Origin: Bacteroidota bacterium
GTDB lineage: Bacteria; Bacteroidota; Bacteroidia; NS11-12g; UBA955
Direction: 5' to 3'
Length of the DNA stretch: 64,000 nt
Assembly (NCBI GenBank): GCA_013205405.1
Contig: JABMMZ010000065.1
Location: 3,252-67,251, forward strand
The notes under the pieces were generated by a model. It saw only the letters and a list, made by a program, of their open reading frames with translations, was not told the DNA's origin and ran no database searches. This document shows positions 1-9,357 of the stretch, in pieces. The translations under genes and the position numbers were made by a program. Within the stretch, counting starts at the first letter, position 1. Every line of letters starts with the position of its first letter.

Positions 1-1153
1 ATGCAATATCAACTAACAACAACATGCGATTATGTTTTTTAGCAATCTGTTTTACTAATTCTGTTTTACCGGTCCCTGAAACGCCATAAAACAATATGGA
101 TAAGGCCTCTTTCATTTTATGTGACTTAAAATTTTCTGCCATTTTTTTGTATTTCTCAGGCGAAAGCATATCTATTATTTTAGTAATGTCTTTTTGCTGC
201 TTATCATTAAAGTATAAATTTTTAAATTCAATATCATCTGGTTTAATCAGCTGGCAAAACTTGTGCCTAATTTTTTTATCTTCAACTTTTACACAGTGCT
301 TCGTAAGCAAATCAAACATTTTATCACCAAAAGTCATGCTACTAAAATCAGCCAATTCCGGATTTACAAAACTGAGATAATTACAGGTAAACAAATCACA
401 TTGGTCATTTTTAATGCGTTGTTTGATATTGTAAACCAAATTATTTTCAAAACATAAGGTTTCACATATCAAATCCAAATCAAATTCTTCTCTATCAAAA
501 ACATATTCACTGCTTAACCAAAACAAAACTATTTTTTCTTCAGACAGAAAATTATTCGATTCTATTATATCTTTAAAAAAAGAATTTTCGTTAAAATCAA
601 TTAAATAGTTTTGGATGCCCTCATACATATCTTCAATAAATAAATCACATTCAACTAAATGTTTGATGTAATTTCTTAATTTGATTAAGCCATCGGTAAA
701 ATCTAAAGGCTTTTCATTTTCTAAACTAGTTTTATCGCAACACATTACTGCATTAATAATTTGTTGAGAAACAATGTATTCTGTAGTTTTAATCTTTTTC
801 ACCCGCTCGTAAGGAAAGGTTTTGTGAGATTGCTTAAGCCAGGTCCGTTTTACTAAATCGTTTATTTGATTATTTAAACTAATTATTTCTAAAGAAGAAA
901 ATCCTATTGATTTTAAAACTTTATGAATGTATCTAACCTCACCGATTAATTGATCGCAAATAATAACTGATAATAATACCCCGGTTTGGGGTTCAACATC
1001 AAAAAAATCACATACAATATTTAACTCGTTTTTATAAGTTTTTACTTTACTTACTTCATTAAATATGTTAACGTGATTACTATGCAGTGTTGTAATGCTT
1101 TGTAATAACATATTGTTTGTTAGAGAATGTTTTTTTAAATTTATTTCTTTCAT
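1..1153 (-). CDS. AAA+ ATPase, N-terminal ~384 codons only; the 3' part lies beyond the window start. It is not in the supplied ORF track because no stop codon is in the window.
   Basis: Hand translation of the minus strand from ATG 1153-1151 is open down to position 2: MKEINLKKHSLTNN...EALSILFYGVSGTGKTELVKQIAKKHNRMLLLVDIA. Walker A GVSGTGKT is encoded at 62-85. It has the same layout as CDS 6135-7760: a helical N-region of about 330 aa, then the P-loop. Confidence 0.8.
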   Translation of the reverse strand, partial: MKEINLKKHSLTNNMLLQSITTLHSNHVNIFNEVSKVKTYKNELNIVCDFFDVEPQTGVLLSVIICDQLIGEVRYIHKVLKSIGFSSLEIISLNNQINDLVKRTWLKQSHKTFPYERVKKIKTTEYIVSQQIINAVMCCDKTSLENEKPLDFTDGLIKLRNYIKHLVECDLFIEDMYEGIQNYLIDFNENSFFKDIIESNNFLSEEKIVLFWLSSEYVFDREEFDLDLICETLCFENNLVYNIKQRIKNDQCDLFTCNYLSFVNPELADFSSMTFGDKMFDLLTKHCVKVEDKKIRHKFCQLIKPDDIEFKNLYFNDKQQKDITKIIDMLSPEKYKKMAENFKSHKMKEALSILFYGVSGTGKTELVKQIAKKHNRMLLLVDIA

Positions 1154-1425
1154 CTTTTGTTTTTTTTAATTTTTAGGCAAAGGCATACACTTACCATTTA
1201 TAGGTTAATTTTTTTACATTTTTAGATTATATTATTGCTAGAGTTAAAGCAAATAATATTTTATAGATTAAAAATCAAATCCGAATTTAAAAATGAAACA
1301 AACAATTATATAAGAAGCTGTGAATGTTAAAATAAAAAAATAGTGTTTTTGAAAATTGTCAAATGATATTTGATCTTCGATCGTTTCGTAATAATCATCA
1401 AATATATCTTCCCTATCACTCAGTG

Positions 1426-1755
1426 TTACATATAAGGGGTCGTTAGGAAAATTTGGGTTACACCCTTAGTTCGAAATTCCGTCTGATATACTTCCTCCAT
1501 TGCCAAACAGTCATCCAATAAAATGTTTCTTTGCGATGAAGTAATAAAAAACTCGAATGCGAAAGGGAAAAACACCATAAATATTAATATTGAATGAGAT
1601 GAATACACTCCAAAAAATGCAAACAGAATAGTATTCAATATTAAAATAATTAAAGGTGAGCCGGGAGGAAATGGAATCCAGTCAAACAGATACCCCGTCT
1701 TCTTTTCTGAGTTTATTCGATTTAAATAATAAATTTGTGCTTCTTCGTTTTCCAT
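1426..1755 (-). CDS. small membrane protein (two predicted TM helices), function unknown
   Basis: 109-aa ORF with two hydrophobic stretches (PLIILILNTILFAFFGVY and ILIFMVFFPFAFEFFI). It lies 79 nt downstream of the DUF2779-type gene on the same strand. Confidence 0.5.
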   Translation of the reverse strand: MENEEAQIYYLNRINSEKKTGYLFDWIPFPPGSPLIILILNTILFAFFGVYSSHSILIFMVFFPFAFEFFITSSQRNILLDDCLAMEEVYQTEFRTKGVTQIFLTTPYM

Positions 1756-1834: not shown

Positions 1835-3346
1835 TTAAATTACGTTACAAAGTACTTTCCAAATTTCAACCATGGCTAAAGTATCCAATTTGCAATACGC
1901 TAATAAGTCATTTCTTGTTTTATTTACATCCCCTTTAAATGAGCCGTCAATCATACTCAGGTATGTTTTGTTGGCTAAATCGCCATTATTTATTTCCAAT
2001 GTTTTATAAGATAAATTCGGAACCAATGCAGGTAACACATCTTTAATTGAGGCACTTTTTCCCATTTGCGGAACATAATACCAAGCATTTTTAAAAACAT
2101 CTAATAAATCAACCATGCGATTATTGAGATCCAATAGAAACAATCGATCTTCAGGAAAATCTTCAGCCAATCGTTCGATAACCCCTTTTTCAAAACTTGC
2201 GTAATATGAAACAATACTTCCTGTTGTTCCAAAATCAAGTTTCATTTGATTGATCATAGCTTGGCGTGGATTTATAGCTTGTGGGTTTGTGAAATCTTCT
2301 GCTTGTGCTAAAAATTCTTTATGCTGTGGTTCTTCTGTTATATTTGAAACAATGTGCAAGGAATATTGAAATCCAACTTGCTCAAATGGAGACGTACGAT
2401 CTAAAACTGGAACAGTTGAATTTACCGTTTCAAAATCGAAAAAATACAATGGATAAACAGCAGTATTTAAAAACTGATGTATACGGGGACTATCAATATG
2501 GGTGGCTCCTGTTCGCTGCCCGTTTACTTGACAACTTTGGCGATGTGATAATTCAAAATCAACGGGAATATCGGCTAAATTAAAAATGCCATCGTTATAC
2601 AAAGTCCAAATTCTATCTCTCCCGTTTGATAAATTAAACACCTTATTATTATCCAATAAATTACCCCAGCAATGTGTTTTAAAATCACAAACAAATGGAT
2701 TATTACAATGCCTTCCAATGGCTTGAATTGGCTCTTCTCCTATTCTTATCATGGATTTAAGCTCTTCAATGTGTTGGATAACCCAAACTTGTTTTTGAAT
2801 AACTAATGCTGTAATATCTGTGAGAGTAAAAAAATCATTCAAATTAATGGCACCATTTTTTTCATACAATTTATTTATGTGCAACAACGAAAATCGTTTG
2901 GGAGCATGCCCAGCATTTGCCATCACCCAATATTGTAAGGCTGCATCTGTAATATAATAATCTTCAATTTTGCTGCTGCTTTTTACTTCTATGGCATGAA
3001 TATCCCCATTAGCATCATGCTGTAATATATCTAAAACGGATAATACTTCATCGTAATAAAATGCAGGTTCGTATAAGGTACAAGTCCTGTTTTGCATTTC
3101 AACAATCGTATTATCGATGGCATCAGCATAATCGTAATGCGTTTGACTTGTTAAATCCAAGCCATTAGGATAACGCTCCTGTGCCATTTTGCCTATCGCA
3201 TGGCCTTGATCAAAAATAGCTTGCTGACTGGAAGTGATGGCTGGTTTTAAATCTTTACGGTTCAGGTCTAAAAATAATTTTTTAGAACATTGCACACCCG
3301 ATACAAAGCGCGACTTAGATAATAGATGTGGATATTTTAATGGCAT
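1835..3346 (-). CDS. DUF2779-type dual nuclease: N-terminal Cas4/RecB-like PD-(D/E)XK domain plus C-terminal DnaQ-like 3'-5' exonuclease domain
   Basis: 503 aa. The N-half has D106 and E120-V-K122 (DIHAIEVKSSSK), plus Cys20 and C214-x5-C220-x5-C226, reminiscent of a Cas4/AddB Fe-S cluster. The C-half has FFDFET (D304, E306) and YCKLD near the C-terminus (DEDDy-like). The N-terminus MPLKYPHLLSKSRFVSGVQC matches my memory of DUF2779 proteins. Confidence 0.75.
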   Translation of the reverse strand: MPLKYPHLLSKSRFVSGVQCSKKLFLDLNRKDLKPAITSSQQAIFDQGHAIGKMAQERYPNGLDLTSQTHYDYADAIDNTIVEMQNRTCTLYEPAFYYDEVLSVLDILQHDANGDIHAIEVKSSSKIEDYYITDAALQYWVMANAGHAPKRFSLLHINKLYEKNGAINLNDFFTLTDITALVIQKQVWVIQHIEELKSMIRIGEEPIQAIGRHCNNPFVCDFKTHCWGNLLDNNKVFNLSNGRDRIWTLYNDGIFNLADIPVDFELSHRQSCQVNGQRTGATHIDSPRIHQFLNTAVYPLYFFDFETVNSTVPVLDRTSPFEQVGFQYSLHIVSNITEEPQHKEFLAQAEDFTNPQAINPRQAMINQMKLDFGTTGSIVSYYASFEKGVIERLAEDFPEDRLFLLDLNNRMVDLLDVFKNAWYYVPQMGKSASIKDVLPALVPNLSYKTLEINNGDLANKTYLSMIDGSFKGDVNKTRNDLLAYCKLDTLAMVEIWKVLCNVI

Positions 3347-3361
3347 AATTTATATTTTTTA

Positions 3362-3369
3362 CAAAGATA
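3362..3369 (-). promoter_or_regulatory. -7 promoter element (TAnnTTTG) for the DUF2779-type gene
   Basis: The minus strand reads TATCTTTG, 15 nt upstream of ATG 3346. Confidence 0.5.
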
Positions 3370-3372
3370 CGT

Positions 3373-3397
3373 TATAGGTATGCATTTTTATTGCAGA
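3373..3397 (-). promoter_or_regulatory. candidate operator (copy 2), upstream of the DUF2779-type nuclease gene
   Basis: The minus strand reads tctgcaataaaaatgcataCctata, identical to copy 1 at 24 of 25 positions, with a 19-nt exact core at 3379-3397. It lies 3 nt upstream of the -7 box at 3362-3369, the same spacing as copy 1. Confidence 0.6.
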
Positions 3398-3434
3398 GTT
3401 TAATTATAGAATAAATAAATTAAAATTTATTATA

Positions 3435-4580
3435 TTACTCATCAATTTCATTATTACTATCAATTAAATCTGAATTAATTTTGTTTATTTCCTCTTTTCT
3501 TAAATTGTCATTCTTAGAATTAAAAAAAGAATTATTCATATTAACTGACCCACCCTCAACCATAAATATGGGGCATTTCATATTCAATCCAATAGTATTC
3601 AATTTATTTATAGTATTATAAATATCAGTATTTGTACTATTAAATTTTTTTCTAGTATAAAGTTCATATATGAACTTAAACAGTGGCTTGTATTTTATAG
3701 TCCCACCACTTTTCGTTTCAGATACTTTAATCATTTCATTTTTAGCGCCAAAATTCAATACGACAATATTATTATTTTCTATTGGGGAAGTAAGTATTTC
3801 GTTTCTAAATTTTTTAGCATTTTCATCAACAGAATCATCAAAAATAAACTGTAATGAAGTATAAGTCGTGGCAACAAACCCATGTAGAAAGTTAATTGGT
3901 TTTTCTTTCGAATTATTGATATAGCGAGTAATTTCATTATACTTATTAATAAAATAATTACTCAAAAGATATGAAAAACCACCGGTAATATTTTGCCTTA
4001 CTTTAGTATCTTGAATAATTGGAAAAGGCAAAAAATCTATTAAAACAATACCTTTAGAGGCTAAAAATTCTAATTTTTGTTGTTTGGTAATACCCATAGG
4101 AAAAATAAGATTTCCACCTTTCCAATTAAAAGGGGCATTCAACCAAGGACTTTTTTTTGTTTGCTTCGGGTTATAAAAATATGATTTTTCATTATTTTTA
4201 GCATTTCCTTTCCAATAAGGGGGGGCTTCGCCTATTAGAATTTCAACATCTGAGATAATTCCTTCCTTTTTGACATTTTCTTTTGGGAAAAGTTTAAGAT
4301 AAAAATCTTTTGCTTCAATTATAATTGGGTTTTGATTTTTCGCAGAAACAATAACAAAGTTGTGTTGAATTCTCTTGTACATTCTTTCAACTCGATTTAC
4401 TCCTTTAAGAACATCAAGATAGTCAACAAAGTATACCCAATTTACTAAATATTCATCATATAATTCTTGAAAAAATTTACCATATACCCAGCCGTATTCC
4501 CAAGCTTTGTTATATAAATCTTCAAATTCTTTTTTAGAAAGTGGGTATAATTCTGCTTTTACTTCTGCTGCTTTTTTCAT
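3435..4580 (-). CDS. hypothetical protein, 381 aa; possible UDG-superfamily-like motif (weak)
   Basis: Long ORF. I prefer ATG 4580 (MKKAAEVKAELYP...) because it starts 1 nt after the stop of CDS 4582-4935, whereas the 4634 start would overlap that gene by 53 nt. No family recognised. The motif VEILIGEAPPYW (4218-4232) resembles the GEAPG-type motif 1 of family 4/5 uracil-DNA glycosylases. Confidence 0.6.
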   Translation of the reverse strand: MKKAAEVKAELYPLSKKEFEDLYNKAWEYGWVYGKFFQELYDEYLVNWVYFVDYLDVLKGVNRVERMYKRIQHNFVIVSAKNQNPIIIEAKDFYLKLFPKENVKKEGIISDVEILIGEAPPYWKGNAKNNEKSYFYNPKQTKKSPWLNAPFNWKGGNLIFPMGITKQQKLEFLASKGIVLIDFLPFPIIQDTKVRQNITGGFSYLLSNYFINKYNEITRYINNSKEKPINFLHGFVATTYTSLQFIFDDSVDENAKKFRNEILTSPIENNNIVVLNFGAKNEMIKVSETKSGGTIKYKPLFKFIYELYTRKKFNSTNTDIYNTINKLNTIGLNMKCPIFMVEGGSVNMNNSFFNSKNDNLRKEEINKINSDLIDSNNEIDE

Positions 4581-4581
4581 T

Positions 4582-4935
4582 TTATTTATTTTTAATAGTG
4601 ATTGAAATAGTATTATTTGTTTTATCCCATCCAATGCGAAGCTTTACGCTAGGGGTATTTAATTGGAGGTAATAGTTTTTACGCACATCCTTAATGGCTT
4701 GCTTGTATACTTCGTAGTTATTTTGTGTTGGTCTAAAATTCTGTTTAATTAATGCAATGCATTCGGTTATACTGAGTGCTTCATTTAATTTATAATGTTC
4801 AAAAAACGCTTTTTTAAAATTGATGGATCTAAATAAAACATAAATACCATTTTTATTTTTTTTGTGAACTAACAAATCACTTTTAAAAAAATTGATGTCC
4901 TTACCTCTTAACTCTTTTTCCATTTTATCTAACAT
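4582..4935 (-). CDS. hypothetical protein, 117 aa
   Basis: ORF packed tightly between the WYL gene (28-nt gap) and the 381-aa gene (1-nt gap). No family recognised. Confidence 0.55.
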   Translation of the reverse strand: MLDKMEKELRGKDINFFKSDLLVHKKNKNGIYVLFRSINFKKAFFEHYKLNEALSITECIALIKQNFRPTQNNYEVYKQAIKDVRKNYYLQLNTPSVKLRIGWDKTNNTISITIKNK

Positions 4936-4963
4936 TATATCCTATTTTAAAAAAAAGTTTCAC

Positions 4964-6040
4964 TTAATTTAAAACTTCATAAAATTCTCTAAATCGTCCT
5001 AATAAAAAAGCCAATTCAATGGATCGTTCGTTCGCCTTTTGCTCTTTGTTTAGTTTTTTCGATAATTTAATTTTTAGGCTCAGTACTAAAGAATTTTCTT
5101 TTAAATTTATTGATTTTTCTTGAATTTTCTGAGTAGGATGTAGGGGTAAACTTTTTACATAGGAAGCCGCCCAATCTCTAAATTTAATTTTCACCTCAGT
5201 TACGGTGTCTTCTTTAGAGTGGTTCCAAACACCAAGCACATTGTCAAAATGTGTTTTTAATTCAGTTTCTTTTTCTAACTTTTTATAATTAAACGTCACA
5301 CATTCCTCTTGCTCATCTAATAATTCATCAACACGCAAATTCCTAATTTGATCTATTCTAAAATTGATAATCGATTGATTATTACTATTTATAGCTGTTA
5401 AATAATAAATCCCATTATACAATCGTATTTGCATGGGCGCCACTTTTTGTTCTGAGGCCTTTTGTATGCTTGTATCTAATTTATTCACAGCGATGTAATG
5501 AAAATGGATGTATTGTCCCCGCTGAATATGCCCTAAAATTTTAATCGCTAATTTCACCACCTTATCTTCTTGCGCTAATTTTGGTTGCGAACTAATTACA
5601 ACAGAAGCACATTTGCTCTCTGTATTATCTAACTCAAATTGCACTACTAAACCTTCCATTATTTTTTTTACAGCTGGTAAGGATTCATATTGTTTTAAAA
5701 TTCCCATTAAAAATGGAACAGTTAATCGTTCATCTTCTTCTAAATCTCCAAAAACTGGCTGAGGACTATCGGCAGCATATTGATAAATTCCATAGCTATA
5801 TTCAATAGTAAAAACTTCCTTTTGTTTAGGGTCTATTTTATCAGATAGACTGTGAATAAAATTACCACTGCGTAAATCTTCTAGGGCATAATTAATCATT
5901 CTTTCTTTTATTGGATTGTAACCTGCTTCATCCAATTTGTCGTTAACAAAGTTTTTCATTTCTTCCAAACTTCCTCCGCCCTTTTTTAAAAATTGATCGA
6001 TAAAACGGATTCGTAATAATTTCTTTGAATTGTTATCCAT
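4964..6040 (-). CDS. WYL-domain transcriptional regulator (wHTH - WYL - WCX architecture, BrxR/CapW-like)
   Basis: 358 aa. N-terminal HTH-like segment: KKLLRIRFIDQFLKKGGGSLEEMKNF...INYALEDLRSG. WYL core at about aa 160-238: QYIHFHYIAV...VAPMQIRLYNGIYYLTAINSNNQSIINFRIDQIRNLRV. The C-terminal domain carries the PLHPTQK motif typical of WYL-protein C-terminal extensions. Confidence 0.75.
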   Translation of the reverse strand: MDNNSKKLLRIRFIDQFLKKGGGSLEEMKNFVNDKLDEAGYNPIKERMINYALEDLRSGNFIHSLSDKIDPKQKEVFTIEYSYGIYQYAADSPQPVFGDLEEDERLTVPFLMGILKQYESLPAVKKIMEGLVVQFELDNTESKCASVVISSQPKLAQEDKVVKLAIKILGHIQRGQYIHFHYIAVNKLDTSIQKASEQKVAPMQIRLYNGIYYLTAINSNNQSIINFRIDQIRNLRVDELLDEQEECVTFNYKKLEKETELKTHFDNVLGVWNHSKEDTVTEVKIKFRDWAASYVKSLPLHPTQKIQEKSINLKENSLVLSLKIKLSKKLNKEQKANERSIELAFLLGRFREFYEVLN

Positions 6041-6071
6041 ACTTTATTTATTCTTATAATTTTTTCAATTA

Positions 6072-6079
6072 CAAATGTA
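6072..6079 (-). promoter_or_regulatory. -7 promoter element (TAnnTTTG) for the WYL regulator operon
   Basis: The minus strand reads TACATTTG, 31 nt upstream of ATG 6040. Confidence 0.5.
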
Positions 6080-6088
6080 AACAATAAG

Positions 6089-6113
6089 TCTGCAATAAAA
6101 ATGCATAGCTATA
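6089..6113 (+). promoter_or_regulatory. candidate operator (copy 1), between the divergent WYL-regulator and AAA+ ATPase promoters
   Basis: tctgcaataaaaatgcataGctata. It contains two TGCA(A/T)(T/A) half-sites 11 bp apart. It lies 3 nt upstream of the ATPase -7-like box and 9 nt from the regulator -7 box on the other strand. Confidence 0.6.
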
Positions 6114-6116
6114 TTA

Positions 6117-6124
6117 TAATTTTA
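6117..6124 (+). promoter_or_regulatory. -7-like promoter element (7/8 match to TAnnTTTG) for the AAA+ ATPase gene
   Basis: TAATTTTA, 10 nt upstream of ATG 6135. Confidence 0.4.
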
Positions 6125-6134
6125 CAGAAAAAAT

Positions 6135-7760
6135 ATGAGAAATTGGTTTAAAGAATTATCAGTTGAAAAAACTGATCGAGTTGAAAAAAAAACAAACTGT
6201 CCAACATTAGAAAGCGAAGTATTTATAGAATTTGCAGCTTTTTTAGGCTTATCCGTTGAATTATCTTTTGTAATGTGTTGTTATTGCCATTTAAGTTCAA
6301 AACACAAAATTGTGAGTAGTTCAGAACTAATAAATTTGGCTAGCAAACAGCTTATATCAAAAGATGTAGAATTGGCCTATGAAGATTTATTATGTATGGG
6401 ATGGCTTATTAATAAATATGATAGAGGAAATAGTTTGGACGAACAAATTGTATTAAATAAAACCCTTGAGTTGGCCATTAAAAAATCAAATGCTGATTTA
6501 CTTCCGCGTTTGATTGAAAATTATAAATACAAAGGCCTGAAACAATTAATTATTAAGGCCTGTTTTTTAAGAACTAATGAAATAAGTAAACAAGAGTGGT
6601 TAGATTATACCACTAAAATCATGCTTAAACCAAGAACAACTTATCTAATCTATTTAAAATCTAAGCGATTATCCAAATTAGATAATGCGATGGTGCTTTT
6701 TGCAACATCCATATATATTCACGAAAGAATCAATAATTGTAGTTCCACCATACTAAGCACGTTTAGTGTTGATAGCATATCTCGTTTTAAACTGCATGCT
6801 GAATTGCAATCCAATCAACATAAAATTATTACCCAAAAATTATTTTTTAACGAAGAGCGGCAGTTTGGTGAAATAGCATTGTTGCCAACTAAAGAATGGT
6901 TAAAAGCAATTTTTCCAGAACTTAAAGTTGTTAATGCCATCGTTAATCACCCAGCTTTAACTCGAATCAATTATACATCAATTCATGAAAAACCATTATT
7001 ATTTAATTCGAATAAACTAAATGATATTTTATTGTTTGAAAAATTATTACAGCCAAAGCAATTTAAAAATTACCGTTTAAAGGCTTTAGAAATGAAAGAA
7101 ATGGGTGGCTTAACCTTTTTATTTTCTGGAGTGCCGGGAACTGGTAAAACTGAGCTTTGCAAACAGCTAGCGTTAAAAACGCATCGCGATGTACTTTTAT
7201 TTAATGTTTCTGAAACCAAAAATAAATTTTACGGTGAGACAGAAAAAAATGTTAAATCTATTTTTGATTATTATAGAACTCTAAGCCATGATCCTGATAA
7301 TTGTCCGATAATTGTATTTAACGAAGCGGATAGTCTTTTTTCTAAAAGAAGTGAAGGAGATAATTATAGTTCGCAAACAGAAAATACGATACAAACAATT
7401 TTATTAAATGAGCTAGAAAATTTTAATGGTATTTTAATTGCGACTACTAACCTACCCGATTCATTTGATGAAGCTTTTAAAAGGCGATTTCTATTTCAGT
7501 TCTCCTTTGATTTACCTGATTTAGAAACTCGAAAATTATTATTAACTACTTATTTTCCAGAAATACCATCTGAACAAAAATGTTTGCTTGCCGAAAAATA
7601 TATATTTTCTGCGGCTGAATTACAAAATTTTAGAAAGCATTTATTATTAAAAATTAGTTTGATTAACCCACAATGTAATACTGTTGTTGAATTTGAAACC
7701 TATTTTATGGGATTAACTAGTCCAAAAAGAAATGTAGTTAAGGGATTTAAAAACTATTAA
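6135..7760 (+). CDS. AAA+ ATPase (classical AAA clade) with a ~320-aa N-terminal domain of unknown function
   Basis: 541 aa. Walker A GVPGTGKT at 7128-7151. Walker B region IIVFNEAD at 7308-7328, with Asn396 (7320-7322) where the canonical Asp is expected. Sensor-1 ATTN, and Arg-finger region FKRRF. Confidence 0.85.
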   Translation: MRNWFKELSVEKTDRVEKKTNCPTLESEVFIEFAAFLGLSVELSFVMCCYCHLSSKHKIVSSSELINLASKQLISKDVELAYEDLLCMGWLINKYDRGNSLDEQIVLNKTLELAIKKSNADLLPRLIENYKYKGLKQLIIKACFLRTNEISKQEWLDYTTKIMLKPRTTYLIYLKSKRLSKLDNAMVLFATSIYIHERINNCSSTILSTFSVDSISRFKLHAELQSNQHKIITQKLFFNEERQFGEIALLPTKEWLKAIFPELKVVNAIVNHPALTRINYTSIHEKPLLFNSNKLNDILLFEKLLQPKQFKNYRLKALEMKEMGGLTFLFSGVPGTGKTELCKQLALKTHRDVLLFNVSETKNKFYGETEKNVKSIFDYYRTLSHDPDNCPIIVFNEADSLFSKRSEGDNYSSQTENTIQTILLNELENFNGILIATTNLPDSFDEAFKRRFLFQFSFDLPDLETRKLLLTTYFPEIPSEQKCLLAEKYIFSAAELQNFRKHLLLKISLINPQCNTVVEFETYFMGLTSPKRNVVKGFKNY

Positions 7761-7842: not shown

Positions 7843-8286
7843 ATGAAATTAATTAAAACAACTAATTATCCCTTACAGTGGGAAAATAGAATTGAAGAGT
7901 GGATGAATAAAAATGGCTTGTATCAATTGGGGAAATTAAACCAAAATGTAATGCATGATTTAAATTTATTTCTAAGTATTCTAAAATCTTACCCTGGCAT
8001 ATCTACAGAATTTCTTTATCAAATAAATGATTTTACTTATGGTATAAAAGTAAGTTGTAAAAACAAGAATATACCATTTATAGCTTACGTTCGTTATGTT
8101 GTAGATGCAGAAGGAGAATTAACATTTGAAATATTTTACACAAATTTTCCTGTTTGGAACAAGGAGAATTGCTCCATAGATTATCAGTATGAAACCATAA
8201 AGATTAGTGGTTCCGAAATAAACGATAGTCAATTCCTAGTTGAGCAAATCATGCAATTATATATTCTTTTTTCAGATTCAAATTAA
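7843..8286 (+). CDS. hypothetical protein, 147 aa
   Basis: ORF 82 nt downstream of the AAA+ ATPase on the same strand. No family recognised. Confidence 0.5.
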   Translation: MKLIKTTNYPLQWENRIEEWMNKNGLYQLGKLNQNVMHDLNLFLSILKSYPGISTEFLYQINDFTYGIKVSCKNKNIPFIAYVRYVVDAEGELTFEIFYTNFPVWNKENCSIDYQYETIKISGSEINDSQFLVEQIMQLYILFSDSN

Positions 8287-8611
8287 CTTAATCTGTTTCT
8301 CCAAAAAATTCCTCGAAGCAAGTAAATAAATTTTTATCGGTTATATGAATTAATTCATTTTATAATTGAAAATTGATATGCAAACTATTTTATTTATTGC
8401 ACCTAAAATCAATAGTATCCTATTTAAATTTATGACTTTCAAATTTAGATAATTCAACCATTATTTGGTAAAAAATAGGTGAATTATTAACGATTAAAAG
8501 ACTAATTATATTGTATTAATTTGCCATTCATAAATTGTACTTTAGTTAATTTTTTTAAGTGATATTTCCTTTTAAAGGGGACGTTTAGTTAATTTTTTAA
8601 AATAATTTCAC

Positions 8612-8631: not shown

Positions 8632-9357
8632 ATGAAAAAATATTTTACTATCATCATAGTTTTTGCCTTTATAAAAAGCATAAACGCTCAAAATGAAAAC
8701 TTATTTTCTAAAGCCCTTTCTATAAGCATAGGGGCAAGTAATCCGCAGGGTGATTTAAGCAAAACAAATATAAATGATAGTAGCTCGGGCTATGCCAAAA
8801 GAGGTGCTGCACTCGCCCTTAATTTTGAGTACAGTTTTCCAAAAGGAATAGGCTTTTATGCCCAATACCATACCACCACTATGGCTATAGACAATGCCAA
8901 ACTGGCTTCAGATGCAGAAACAGATTTAGGCTTTGGTTGGAAAAATTCTGAAATAAAAACAAGCGGTTATAAAATTAGTGCTCTTAATTTTGGTCTAATG
9001 TACACCATCAATAAAAACCATAAATTTCAAATAATACCACGTTTAGGCTTTAGCTTTAGCAATTGCACTAACAGAAAAATAGATGCCACTTTTAAAAATG
9101 GCGCATTTACTGCACGCTATAATTTTGAAGATGGTAAGGCAAGTGCTGTGAATATTAATTGGGGTTTTGATTTAAGTTACCGTGTATCTAAAAAAATAAT
9201 TATTCTAGCTAAGTTTGTAAACCAAGTACAAGTGCCACAATTTGATGTTAAAAGACAAGCCTATCTCAATGGCTTTTTAATAAAAGAAGAAAAGAAAAAA
9301 GAAACCGTAGGACAGCTATTTAGCGGATTTTTGTTTGGAATAAAATATAGGATTTGA
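8632..9357 (+). CDS. outer-membrane beta-barrel protein (porin-like), signal peptide
   Basis: ATG 8632 gives MKKYFTIIIVFAFIKSINAQ (signal peptide). The rest has an alternating aromatic/small-residue beta-strand pattern (YAQYHTTT, GFSFSN, WGFDLSYRV). The track start at 8617 is a TTG inside the -7 box. Confidence 0.6.
   Translation: MKKYFTIIIVFAFIKSINAQNENLFSKALSISIGASNPQGDLSKTNINDSSSGYAKRGAALALNFEYSFPKGIGFYAQYHTTTMAIDNAKLASDAETDLGFGWKNSEIKTSGYKISALNFGLMYTINKNHKFQIIPRLGFSFSNCTNRKIDATFKNGAFTARYNFEDGKASAVNINWGFDLSYRVSKKIIILAKFVNQVQVPQFDVKRQAYLNGFLIKEEKKKETVGQLFSGFLFGIKYRI

Follow-up and report, generated by a model that had tools for sequence, protein, structure and literature searches.

Which function might a 25-nt DNA element have that occurs twice, in inverted orientation, in front of two operons of a gene island in a Bacteroidota bacterium? 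The element lies on contig JABMMZ010000065.1 (assembly GCA_013205405.1), of which 64,000 nucleotides, positions 3,252 to 67,251, were analyzed; this whole stretch, with a G+C content of about 31%, is called the window. A first-pass annotation had reported the element upstream of genes for an AAA+ ATPase and a nuclease and had linked it to a regulator with a WYL domain. Its 19-bp core is very probably the operator of the adjacent winged helix-turn-helix (wHTH)-WYL-WCX regulator, whatever the sign of regulation, as indicated by the conservation of the core, the co-variation of its arms, its exclusive association with the WYL gene, and the fold of the protein. That the regulator is a ligand-dependent activator, with a mode of action like those of DriD and PafBC, is a reading by analogy, to which we give a probability of about 0.5.

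The element at positions 6089-6113 of the plus strand has the sequence tctgcaataaaaatgcataGctata (also given as tctgcaataaaaatgcatagctata), and its letters and coordinates had been annotated exactly. The second copy at positions 3373-3397 of the minus strand matches it at 24 of 25 positions, and a direct comparison verified that the copies have an exact core of 19 nt in common, TCTGCAATAAAAATGCATA. No third copy was found in the window at up to three mismatches, neither with the 25-mer nor with an 18-nt core, and also the roughly 4.7 kb of the source contig (L174) past the left edge of the window are devoid of a further copy. By chance none is expected, and 100 shuffles of the window that preserved the dinucleotides did not yield a single match to the 25-mer. 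The degenerate pattern TGCAWWN5TGCAWW, which had been suggested as a check, is not significant on its own in 64 kb (2 occurrences versus 1.06 expected), and the significance of the element lies in the long exact match and its conservation, not in the degenerate pattern. An immediate divergence of the flanking sequences had also been annotated. This is true for the upstream side, where the two copies are unrelated; from the element outward to the start codons, a gapless extension revealed a weak likeness over 50 nt (78%), which is mostly due to the common -7 box and the A-rich leader with its A-runs.

A scan of the GTDB collection, one genome per species, with TCTGCAAYAAWWWTGCATA yielded 104 stretches from unrelated phyla, which by a rough estimate is about the number expected by chance. 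Only one of them (L068; loci and contigs used for comparison are numbered with the letter L) has two copies, in the same layout, and it belongs to a metagenome-assembled genome (MAG) with 93-96% DNA identity to the window. The other 103 stretches have no homolog of any island protein, and none of them is from the assembly of L068. The latter (CAMAVS010000006.1) is the closest relative in the genome collection; the MAG is titled 'Chitinophaga pinensis isolate ME-08apr19-307', and this species label looks doubtful in view of the G+C content of about 31% of the window. A generic element at many unrelated promoters throughout the genome had been considered in the annotation; as far as the window, the source contig and the scan with one genome per species are concerned, such a distribution was not observed.

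The protein collection contains 90 homologs of the WYL protein, mostly from freshwater metagenomes and Flavobacterium-like genomes. The loci of the closest homologs, with 84-94% identity (L001-L004, L068, L120-L124, L126, L128 and L157), have the genes p147 and AAA541 on one strand and WYL, p117, a variable slot and DUF2779 on the other strand (gene names as in Table 1). The order and orientation of the block bracketed by the two copies are identical in all 14 close relatives with at least two island genes, and none of them is inverted. The 19-nt core is invariant at both sites in 15 relatives while the flanks diverge, e.g., around copy 1 in L068, L001-3 and L121-124, and variants are present in L004 and L122. 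On the DUF2779 side (alignment A3), the operator and everything up to the ATG hardly vary, and the sequences upstream of the operator are unrelated between relatives. The last six bases of the 25-mer, GCTATA in the window, are CCAACG in L001, L123 and L124 and GCGATA in L068. The unit that is conserved among the relatives is the 19-bp core, and not the 25 nt that had been annotated. Both core variants keep the arms and gain palindromy, with TCTGCAA-caatt-TTGCATA in L004 and CATGCAA-taatt-TTGCATA in L122.

The architecture of the core differs from the two direct TGCA(A/T)(T/A) half-sites that had been proposed. It is an imperfect inverted repeat with arms that co-vary in the family; in the window 5 of 7 arm positions are palindromic, and the asymmetry is the same in both copies and points in the same direction toward the AAA+ and the DUF2779 genes. 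About 19 operator variants of the form xxxGCAA-N5-TTGCxxx were found beside WYL homologs of 37-94% identity, and also the distant homologs (37-48% identity), which have different neighborhoods, carry the 7-N5-7 design just upstream of their own gene. Examples are TTTGCAA-N5-TTGCATA (L005), TACGCAA-N5-TTGCGTA (L007, L011, L132, L134, L142 and L145), TGCGCAA-N5-TTGCGCA (L136 and L149), TGTGCAA-N5-TTGCACA (L151), ACTGCGA-N5-TCGCAGT (L013) and ACTTCGA-N5-TCGAAGT (L127). The spacer sequence varies freely, while its length is constant. Among 29 distinct operators, five of the seven arm positions change on both sides with complementarity being kept. The arms are complementary in 94% of the cells (with G-T counted as a pair), none of 500 shuffles reached the observed values, and the signal collapsed when the register was slid by one to three columns.

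Across lineages the WYL gene is the only gene that is always adjacent to the palindrome, while p117, p381, DUF2779 and AAA541 are each missing from some of the operator-bearing lineages. This supports the annotated view of a cis-regulatory site that is linked to the WYL regulator. In addition, a residue of the predicted recognition helix tracks arm base 3. In six lineages the sequence RTLQ occurs together with CGCAA arms, L145 (RTLV) being the one exception, R or N at this position goes with TGCAA arms, and the closely related pair L149/L151 switches both the helix residue and the arm base. This correlation is suggestive and phylogenetically confounded. Further operators were found before other operons elsewhere, i.e., in L145 at position 9138 and in L149 at position 8434 by a DUF2779 gene. 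Tandem operators about 97 nt apart, two to three per intergenic region between WYL and the divergent gene, are present in L144-L149 and L151/L153 (e.g., L144 1681/1778, L145 4864/4960, L149 4840/4937 and L151 1187/1284/1382). In the tandem-operator lineages the -7 boxes are placed so that the divergent transcripts cross, each passing through the operator of the other. Other members of the WYL family adjoin a 1117-aa fusion of RNase_H_2 (PF13482) and a helicase, and reverse transcriptase genes are near (modules at L007 5992-9345, L005 627-1742 and L007 9350-10372); therefore, the family is linked to several different nuclease- or helicase-containing modules.

The fold of the protein is in agreement with a DNA-binding regulator of the WYL type. 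The WYL domain was recognized by Pfam (PF13280, E = 5.2e-7, 30 bits versus a cut-off of 21.8) and by PADLOC (WYL, 5.8e-14). An AlphaFold2 (AF2) model built from 34 homologs had a pLDDT (predicted local distance difference test) value of 88. When it was compared with known structures using Foldseek, all 30 matches with E < 1e-3 were chains of DriD, PafBC, BrxR or CapW, with about 335-390 aligned columns, and the best E-values were 5.6e-12 for DriD, 3e-10 for PafBC, 5e-7 for BrxR and 2e-6 for CapW. The protein models as a wHTH-WYL-WCX regulator, and its nearest neighbors are the activators DriD and PafBC. When the PDB was searched by sequence and by profile, no match to the WYL protein was obtained, and only the structure-based search was successful. 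A scan of the viral contigs of IMG/VR did not reveal a relative of the WYL protein.

The location of the core relative to the predicted promoters is very uniform. As had been annotated, each 25-nt copy ends 3 nt before a -7 box of the downstream gene, and the gap between the 19-bp core and the box is 9 nt. The annotation had missed a perfect box on the minus strand, in front of the WYL gene, which is also 9 nt away from copy 1, so that all three predicted promoters of the window have the same gap. From the center of copy 1 (position 6098), the first base of each divergent box is 19 nt away. Because copy 1 is 9 nt from the AAA+ box as well as from the WYL box, one site would serve a back-to-back pair of divergent promoters. 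This geometry was quantified with 58 non-identical operator contexts containing 78 TAnnTTT[GA] boxes. Of these boxes, 52 have a gap of 9 nt and 9 a gap of 8 nt (together 61 of 78), and the other 17 are distributed over nine other offsets, while the background density of such boxes upstream of open reading frames (ORFs) is 0.0044 per position. Boxes often flank the operator on both sides, with gaps of 9/9 or 8/9, as in the window. Even a sub-clade with an unrelated palindrome, ACCACAT-N4-ATGTGGT (L150 and L152), has 9-nt gaps on both sides. It is thus the length of the gap that is constrained, since its sequence is not conserved. With the first T of the box placed near -12, the core would reach from about -40 to -22; it ends 8-9 nt upstream of the -7 box and does not overlap with it. 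The proposals that the element takes the place of a -33 element, that it is oriented toward both downstream genes, that it is specific for the island and that it suits a dimer all gained support. A general scan for sigma-70 promoters was at chance level (49 found versus 53 expected), as was that for terminators (4 versus 3.5), and both are uninformative for this organism.

From sequence, conservation, co-variation, spacing and fold we infer the following picture of binding, ligand, transcription starts and sign of regulation. A dimer of the WYL protein would bind to the imperfect palindrome TCTGCAA-N5-ATGCATA. Copy 1 would act on the AAA+/p147 and WYL-p117-p381 operons from between their back-to-back promoters, copy 2 before an operon comprised of the DUF2779 nuclease, the 162-aa gene, AAA571 and a 206-aa gene, and a single signal, sensed by the WYL domain, would control the whole island. 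Judging from DriD, PafBC and CapW (PMC11662680), this signal is probably single-stranded DNA (ssDNA) originating from DNA damage or phage attack. The dimer, located at the -33 position and at a fixed distance to the -7 box, might bind together with RNA polymerase and stimulate transcription when the ligand is present. Such a stereospecific, polymerase-contacting mode is favored because of the rigid upstream spacing and the closer structural match to DriD and PafBC. It is tempting to go one step further and to tentatively postulate a Bacteroidota-specific clade of DriD-like WYL activators, for which the site replaces the -33 element at a rigid distance of 9 bp to the -7 box and one dimer drives both divergent promoters. 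If true, this would be the first class-II-like activation architecture for the unusual sigma-A promoters of Bacteroidota, and the uncharacterized island under its control would encode an AAA+ ATPase, a double nuclease (Cas4/DUF2779) and a hypervariable protein whose fold is unmatched in the PDB.

Several points weigh against activation. The genomic context resembles that of a defense island, with nucleases, AAA+ ATPases, a hypervariable gene and the integrase of L001 (see below), and the characterized WYL regulators of defense islands, BrxR and CapW, are repressors. All boxes are near-perfect matches to TAnnTTTG; the promoters might be strong on their own, and a protein centered near -31 could occlude the polymerase. 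The second operator in the 5'-untranslated region (5'-UTR) of WYL in L145 and L149 would suit a roadblock repressor equally well. The spacing has exceptions, with a gap of 3 in L005 and of 19 in L151/L153. The absence of a TTG at -33 spacing from the operator promoters was dropped as a proof of an activator, since only 4 of 20 ordinary promoter-like boxes of the window have one. The operator differs from the DriD site, which is 7-N7-7 (ATACGAC-N7-GTCGTAT), while here it is 7-N5-7 with a GCAA/TTGC core, and it is nearer to the core promoter than estimated in 2022 for didA. As for the co-variation, the regular expression used for site detection had fixed the inner four arm positions, and the loci are related to one another.

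With the same operator and the same WYL protein, these observations could be explained by a repressor of the CapW/BrxR type, which would fall somewhat short of even odds. The dimer would block the -33 region of three promoters, and an ssDNA ligand would de-repress the island including the operon of the regulator itself. The context, the boxes and the 5'-UTR operators, as roadblocks, fit to this explanation, as do two known systems: BrxR has two R-BOXes with 5-bp spacers (PMC9122601) and CapW acts at a bidirectional promoter (PMC11662680). Also, the -33 element is rare at ordinary promoters here, so that occupying this region is not obviously a substitute for it. Occlusion, however, does not need single-base precision, yet 61 of the 78 gaps are 9 or 8 nt long, across lineages whose operator and gap sequences are entirely different. 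Furthermore, the site never overlaps the -7 box, unlike the CapW sites on the -10 box, and the Foldseek matches are nearer to DriD and PafBC (1e-10 to 1e-12) than to BrxR and CapW (about 1e-6). Repression by occlusion, as had been proposed in the first-pass annotation, is not established, given the fixed 9-nt gap across distant lineages and a core that keeps clear of the -7 box.

Binding of the palindrome by another factor, i.e., the p117 product or a host regulator, with only an indirect link to WYL, is improbable. That p117 and several neighbors have no assigned function, and that the binding of WYL to the site is itself deduced, would allow for it. On the other hand, the other island genes are absent from some lineages, it is solely the WYL gene that always adjoins the palindrome, and the class of the operator correlates with the WYL recognition helix. 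Even less probable is a plain duplicated promoter without a dedicated regulator, either the remnant of a 50-nt duplication or a generic promoter or UP-type feature. The weak likeness over 50 nt including the box, and the orientation of the DUF2779 copy, which is like that of the AAA+-side promoter, fit to a duplication; it does not account for a palindromic core with arms that co-vary over about 19 variants, which is far better conserved than its flanks, absent from the other promoters in 64 kb and found only beside WYL genes. Last, the two copies, which are inverted and bracket three genes with the variable p381 slot inside, were considered as the terminal inverted repeats of a 2.7-kb cassette (3373-6113) that could move or invert. 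This idea was rejected because no transposase or recombinase gene lies between the copies, the outer edges (ACGT versus TTAT) do not form a target-site duplication and the synteny is fixed in the relatives, while L120, devoid of p381, still has the operator directly before DUF2779, other lineages have single copies of the motif, always in promoter geometry, and the WYL family is absent from the IMG/VR contigs.

The operator reading, with activation as the favored sign, would place all genes listed in Table 1 under one switch.

Table 1. Positions of the two operator cores, the predicted -7 boxes and the island genes in the window.
Feature	Positions	Strand	Remarks
Second AAA+ gene, 5' part (AAA571, 571 aa in the source contig)	2-1153	-	Runs off the window
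Homolog of the 162-aa gene after DUF2779	1271-1755	-	Frameshifted; tblastn matches in two frames
Cas4-like PD-(D/E)XK plus DUF2779 (RNase H-like exonuclease), 503 aa	1835-3346	-	PF11074, E = 1.7e-35; PADLOC Cas4, 7e-5; first gene under copy 2
Predicted -7 box TATCTTTG, DUF2779 operon promoter	3362-3369	-	9 nt from core copy 2; consensus match
Operator core copy 2	3379-3397	-	Identical to copy 1; upstream of the DUF2779 operon
p381, 381-aa ORF	3435-4580	-	Hypervariable slot at the end of the WYL operon; no family assignment
p117, 117-aa ORF	4582-4935	-	In the WYL operon; no family assignment; kept in close relatives only
wHTH-WYL-WCX regulator gene, 358 aa	4964-6040	-	Presumed operator binder; Pfam PF13280, PADLOC WYL, AF2, Foldseek
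Predicted -7 box TACATTTG, WYL operon promoter	6072-6079	-	9 nt from the other edge of core copy 1; invariant among relatives
Operator core copy 1	6089-6107	+	TCTGCAA-taaaa-ATGCATA, 19 bp, 5/7 palindromic; equidistant from two divergent -7 boxes
Last six bases of the 25-mer, GCTATA	6108-6113	+	Inside the 9-nt gap; not conserved
Predicted -7 box TAATTTTA, AAA541 promoter	6117-6124	+	9 nt from core; TAATTTTG in L001; consensus match
AAA+ ATPase AAA541, 541 aa	6135-7760	+	PF00004, E = 7e-24; PADLOC IetA-like, 1.5e-19; first gene under copy 1
p147, 147-aa ORF	7843-8286	+	Read as co-transcribed with the AAA+ gene; beside AAA541 in L001, L068, L123 and L124

In many distant lineages, the WYL gene occurs together with AAA541-like genes. 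The DUF2779 family is described as a Cas4-like nuclease fused to an RNase H-like 3'-5' exonuclease (PMC3985635, PMC13621843), and the annotated label of a dual nuclease is fair in the light of this literature. In the source contig, AAA571 is followed by the 206-aa gene and RmuC. NCBIfam does not have a model for the WYL protein, p117, p381 or p147. PADLOC did not detect a complete known anti-phage system in the island; it reported partial matches, i.e., IetA-like for the AAA+ protein and weak Cas4 matches, plus RmuC, which may equal a flanking host gene. The 162-aa gene is split over two frames in the window, with only a 109-aa ORF left; the cause is a frameshift or else an error of sequencing. 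L001 (628-1884) encodes a tyrosine integrase (Arm-DNA-bind_5, Phage_int_SAM_5 and Phage_integrase) next to the p147 end of the island, which is absent from the window; this integrase suggests that some hosts carry, or once carried, the island on an integrative element.

The p381 slot is hypervariable (window 3435-4580 on the minus strand, L001 5826-6866, L120 1537-1707 and L068 1085-2026), while the islands are otherwise 84-98% identical. The identity of p381 is 43-55% in L004, L068, L121, L122, L128 and L157; in L001 an unrelated protein of 346 aa occupies the slot, and in L120 the slot is absent. The p381 family is large (104 matches) and has no Pfam model. The AF2 model of p381 is confident, with a pLDDT of 84 and a pTM (predicted template modeling score) of 0.87, and it has no significant neighbor in the PDB (best E = 0.49). 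After a beta-strand, the family has an invariant GEAPP motif. This motif is similar to motif A of uracil-DNA glycosylases (UDG), and nothing supports a UDG reading of it. A UDG-like glycosylase is an unsupported assignment for p381, as the Foldseek E-values for UDG and thymine-DNA glycosylase (TDG) structures were about 3-5 and the profile search was empty.

Three additional observations concern sequence elements of the island. Rfam did not find any family in the 64 kb and thus no known RNA element, and the core is upstream of all three predicted boxes, so that it is probably not transcribed from them; an RNA element was rejected for these reasons. An inverted repeat of 23 nt with 96% complementarity connects positions 1710-1732 in the 109-aa ORF and positions 6996-7018 in the AAA541 ORF; both arms are coding, and the repeat is unexplained. 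A perfect 7-N5-7 palindrome, ATCAGTT-gaaaa-AACTGAT, lies at positions 6158-6176 on the plus strand in codons 8-14 of AAA541 and is kept at 6 of 7 positions in L121. It has the geometry of the operator with another sequence, and about four such palindromes are expected in 64 kb, so that it is probably a chance occurrence.

WYL regulators are a widespread switch for defense and DNA-damage genes, and promoter recognition in Bacteroidota differs from the E. coli model. The locus offers a compact, testable system, with a divergent promoter of 94 bp that contains one 19-bp site and with a second copy 2.7 kb away. The roughly 19 natural operator variants, each paired with its regulator, represent a specificity code that can be put to the test, and activation can be told apart from occlusion by a concrete prediction, the rigid spacing of 9 nt. 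The regulon as such has no assigned function; it comprises two AAA+ ATPases, the Cas4/DUF2779 nuclease and the hypervariable protein without structural neighbors, and knowing the switch of the island is a practical route to its inducer.

How does the arrangement compare with characterized WYL systems? DriD of Caulobacter crescentus (PMC9186387, PMC10853764, PMC13004042) is the best structural match (5.6e-12). DriD is a homodimer, its pseudo-palindromic sites are at the -35 position with an identical distance to the -10 box in all targets, including the bidirectional promoter shared with driD itself (PMC13004042), and its targets include the nuclease gene bapE. Here, the site is at -33 with a constant distance to the -7 box, and it is also located in a bidirectional promoter together with the regulator's own gene. 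Unlike in the DriD system, the divergent pair has a box at equal distance in either direction, the host has the -33/-7 promoters typical of Bacteroidota, the sequence identity of the proteins is only 12-13%, and activation is deduced. PafBC, which is known from mycobacteria and sigma adaptation, is also a WYL activator with an element upstream of the -10 box and is the second-best match (3e-10). According to the account cited in PMC13004042, this element is at about -26, just upstream of the -10 box and in place of the -35 element; the proximal half-site of the operator would be centered near -25, assuming position -12 for the first T of the box. As far as that account goes, PafBC differs in being a heterodimer, in having a non-palindromic motif and in not binding DNA without RNA polymerase.

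BrxR (E. fergusonii pEFER and Acinetobacter BREX [bacteriophage exclusion]; PMC9122601, PMC9122589) is likewise a WYL regulator of a defense-type island. It is autoregulated and has inverted repeats with a 5-bp spacer, R-BOX1 and R-BOX2, before two transcription units. Its arms, however, are 10-11 bp long, R-BOX1 is located just downstream of the -10 box and acts by a steric block (PMC9122601), and no fixed spacing was reported; in addition, the structural match is weaker (5e-7), and the system described here is not BREX, with only weak IetA-like and Cas4-like matches. CapW of CBASS (anti-phage signaling system based on cyclic oligonucleotides; PMC9122588, PMC11662680) has the same wHTH-WYL-WCX architecture, forms a homodimer, has ssDNA as a ligand (PMC11662680) and uses an imperfect palindrome of 19-24 bp in the bidirectional promoter that lies between the regulated operon and the gene of CapW itself. 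The differences are that CapW is a demonstrated repressor with palindromes that overlap the -10 box (PMC9122588), while here a distance of 8-9 nt always separates the site from the -7 box downstream of it, and that the structural match is weaker (2e-6). The operator described here has one trait in common with the sites of CapW and BrxR, a palindrome by the regulator's own gene and in the promoter region of the regulated operon, but it neither overlaps the -10 equivalent nor lies just downstream of it. A literature search did not find a characterized WYL regulator in Bacteroidota. Taken together, the arrangement appears to work like known WYL switches, combining a palindromic site in a bidirectional promoter, known from CapW and DriD, with a second operator before another operon of the island, as for R-BOX2 of BrxR, and the novel features are the Bacteroidota family, the 7-N5-7 design, the very rigid spacing of 9 nt to the -7 box and an uncharacterized regulon.

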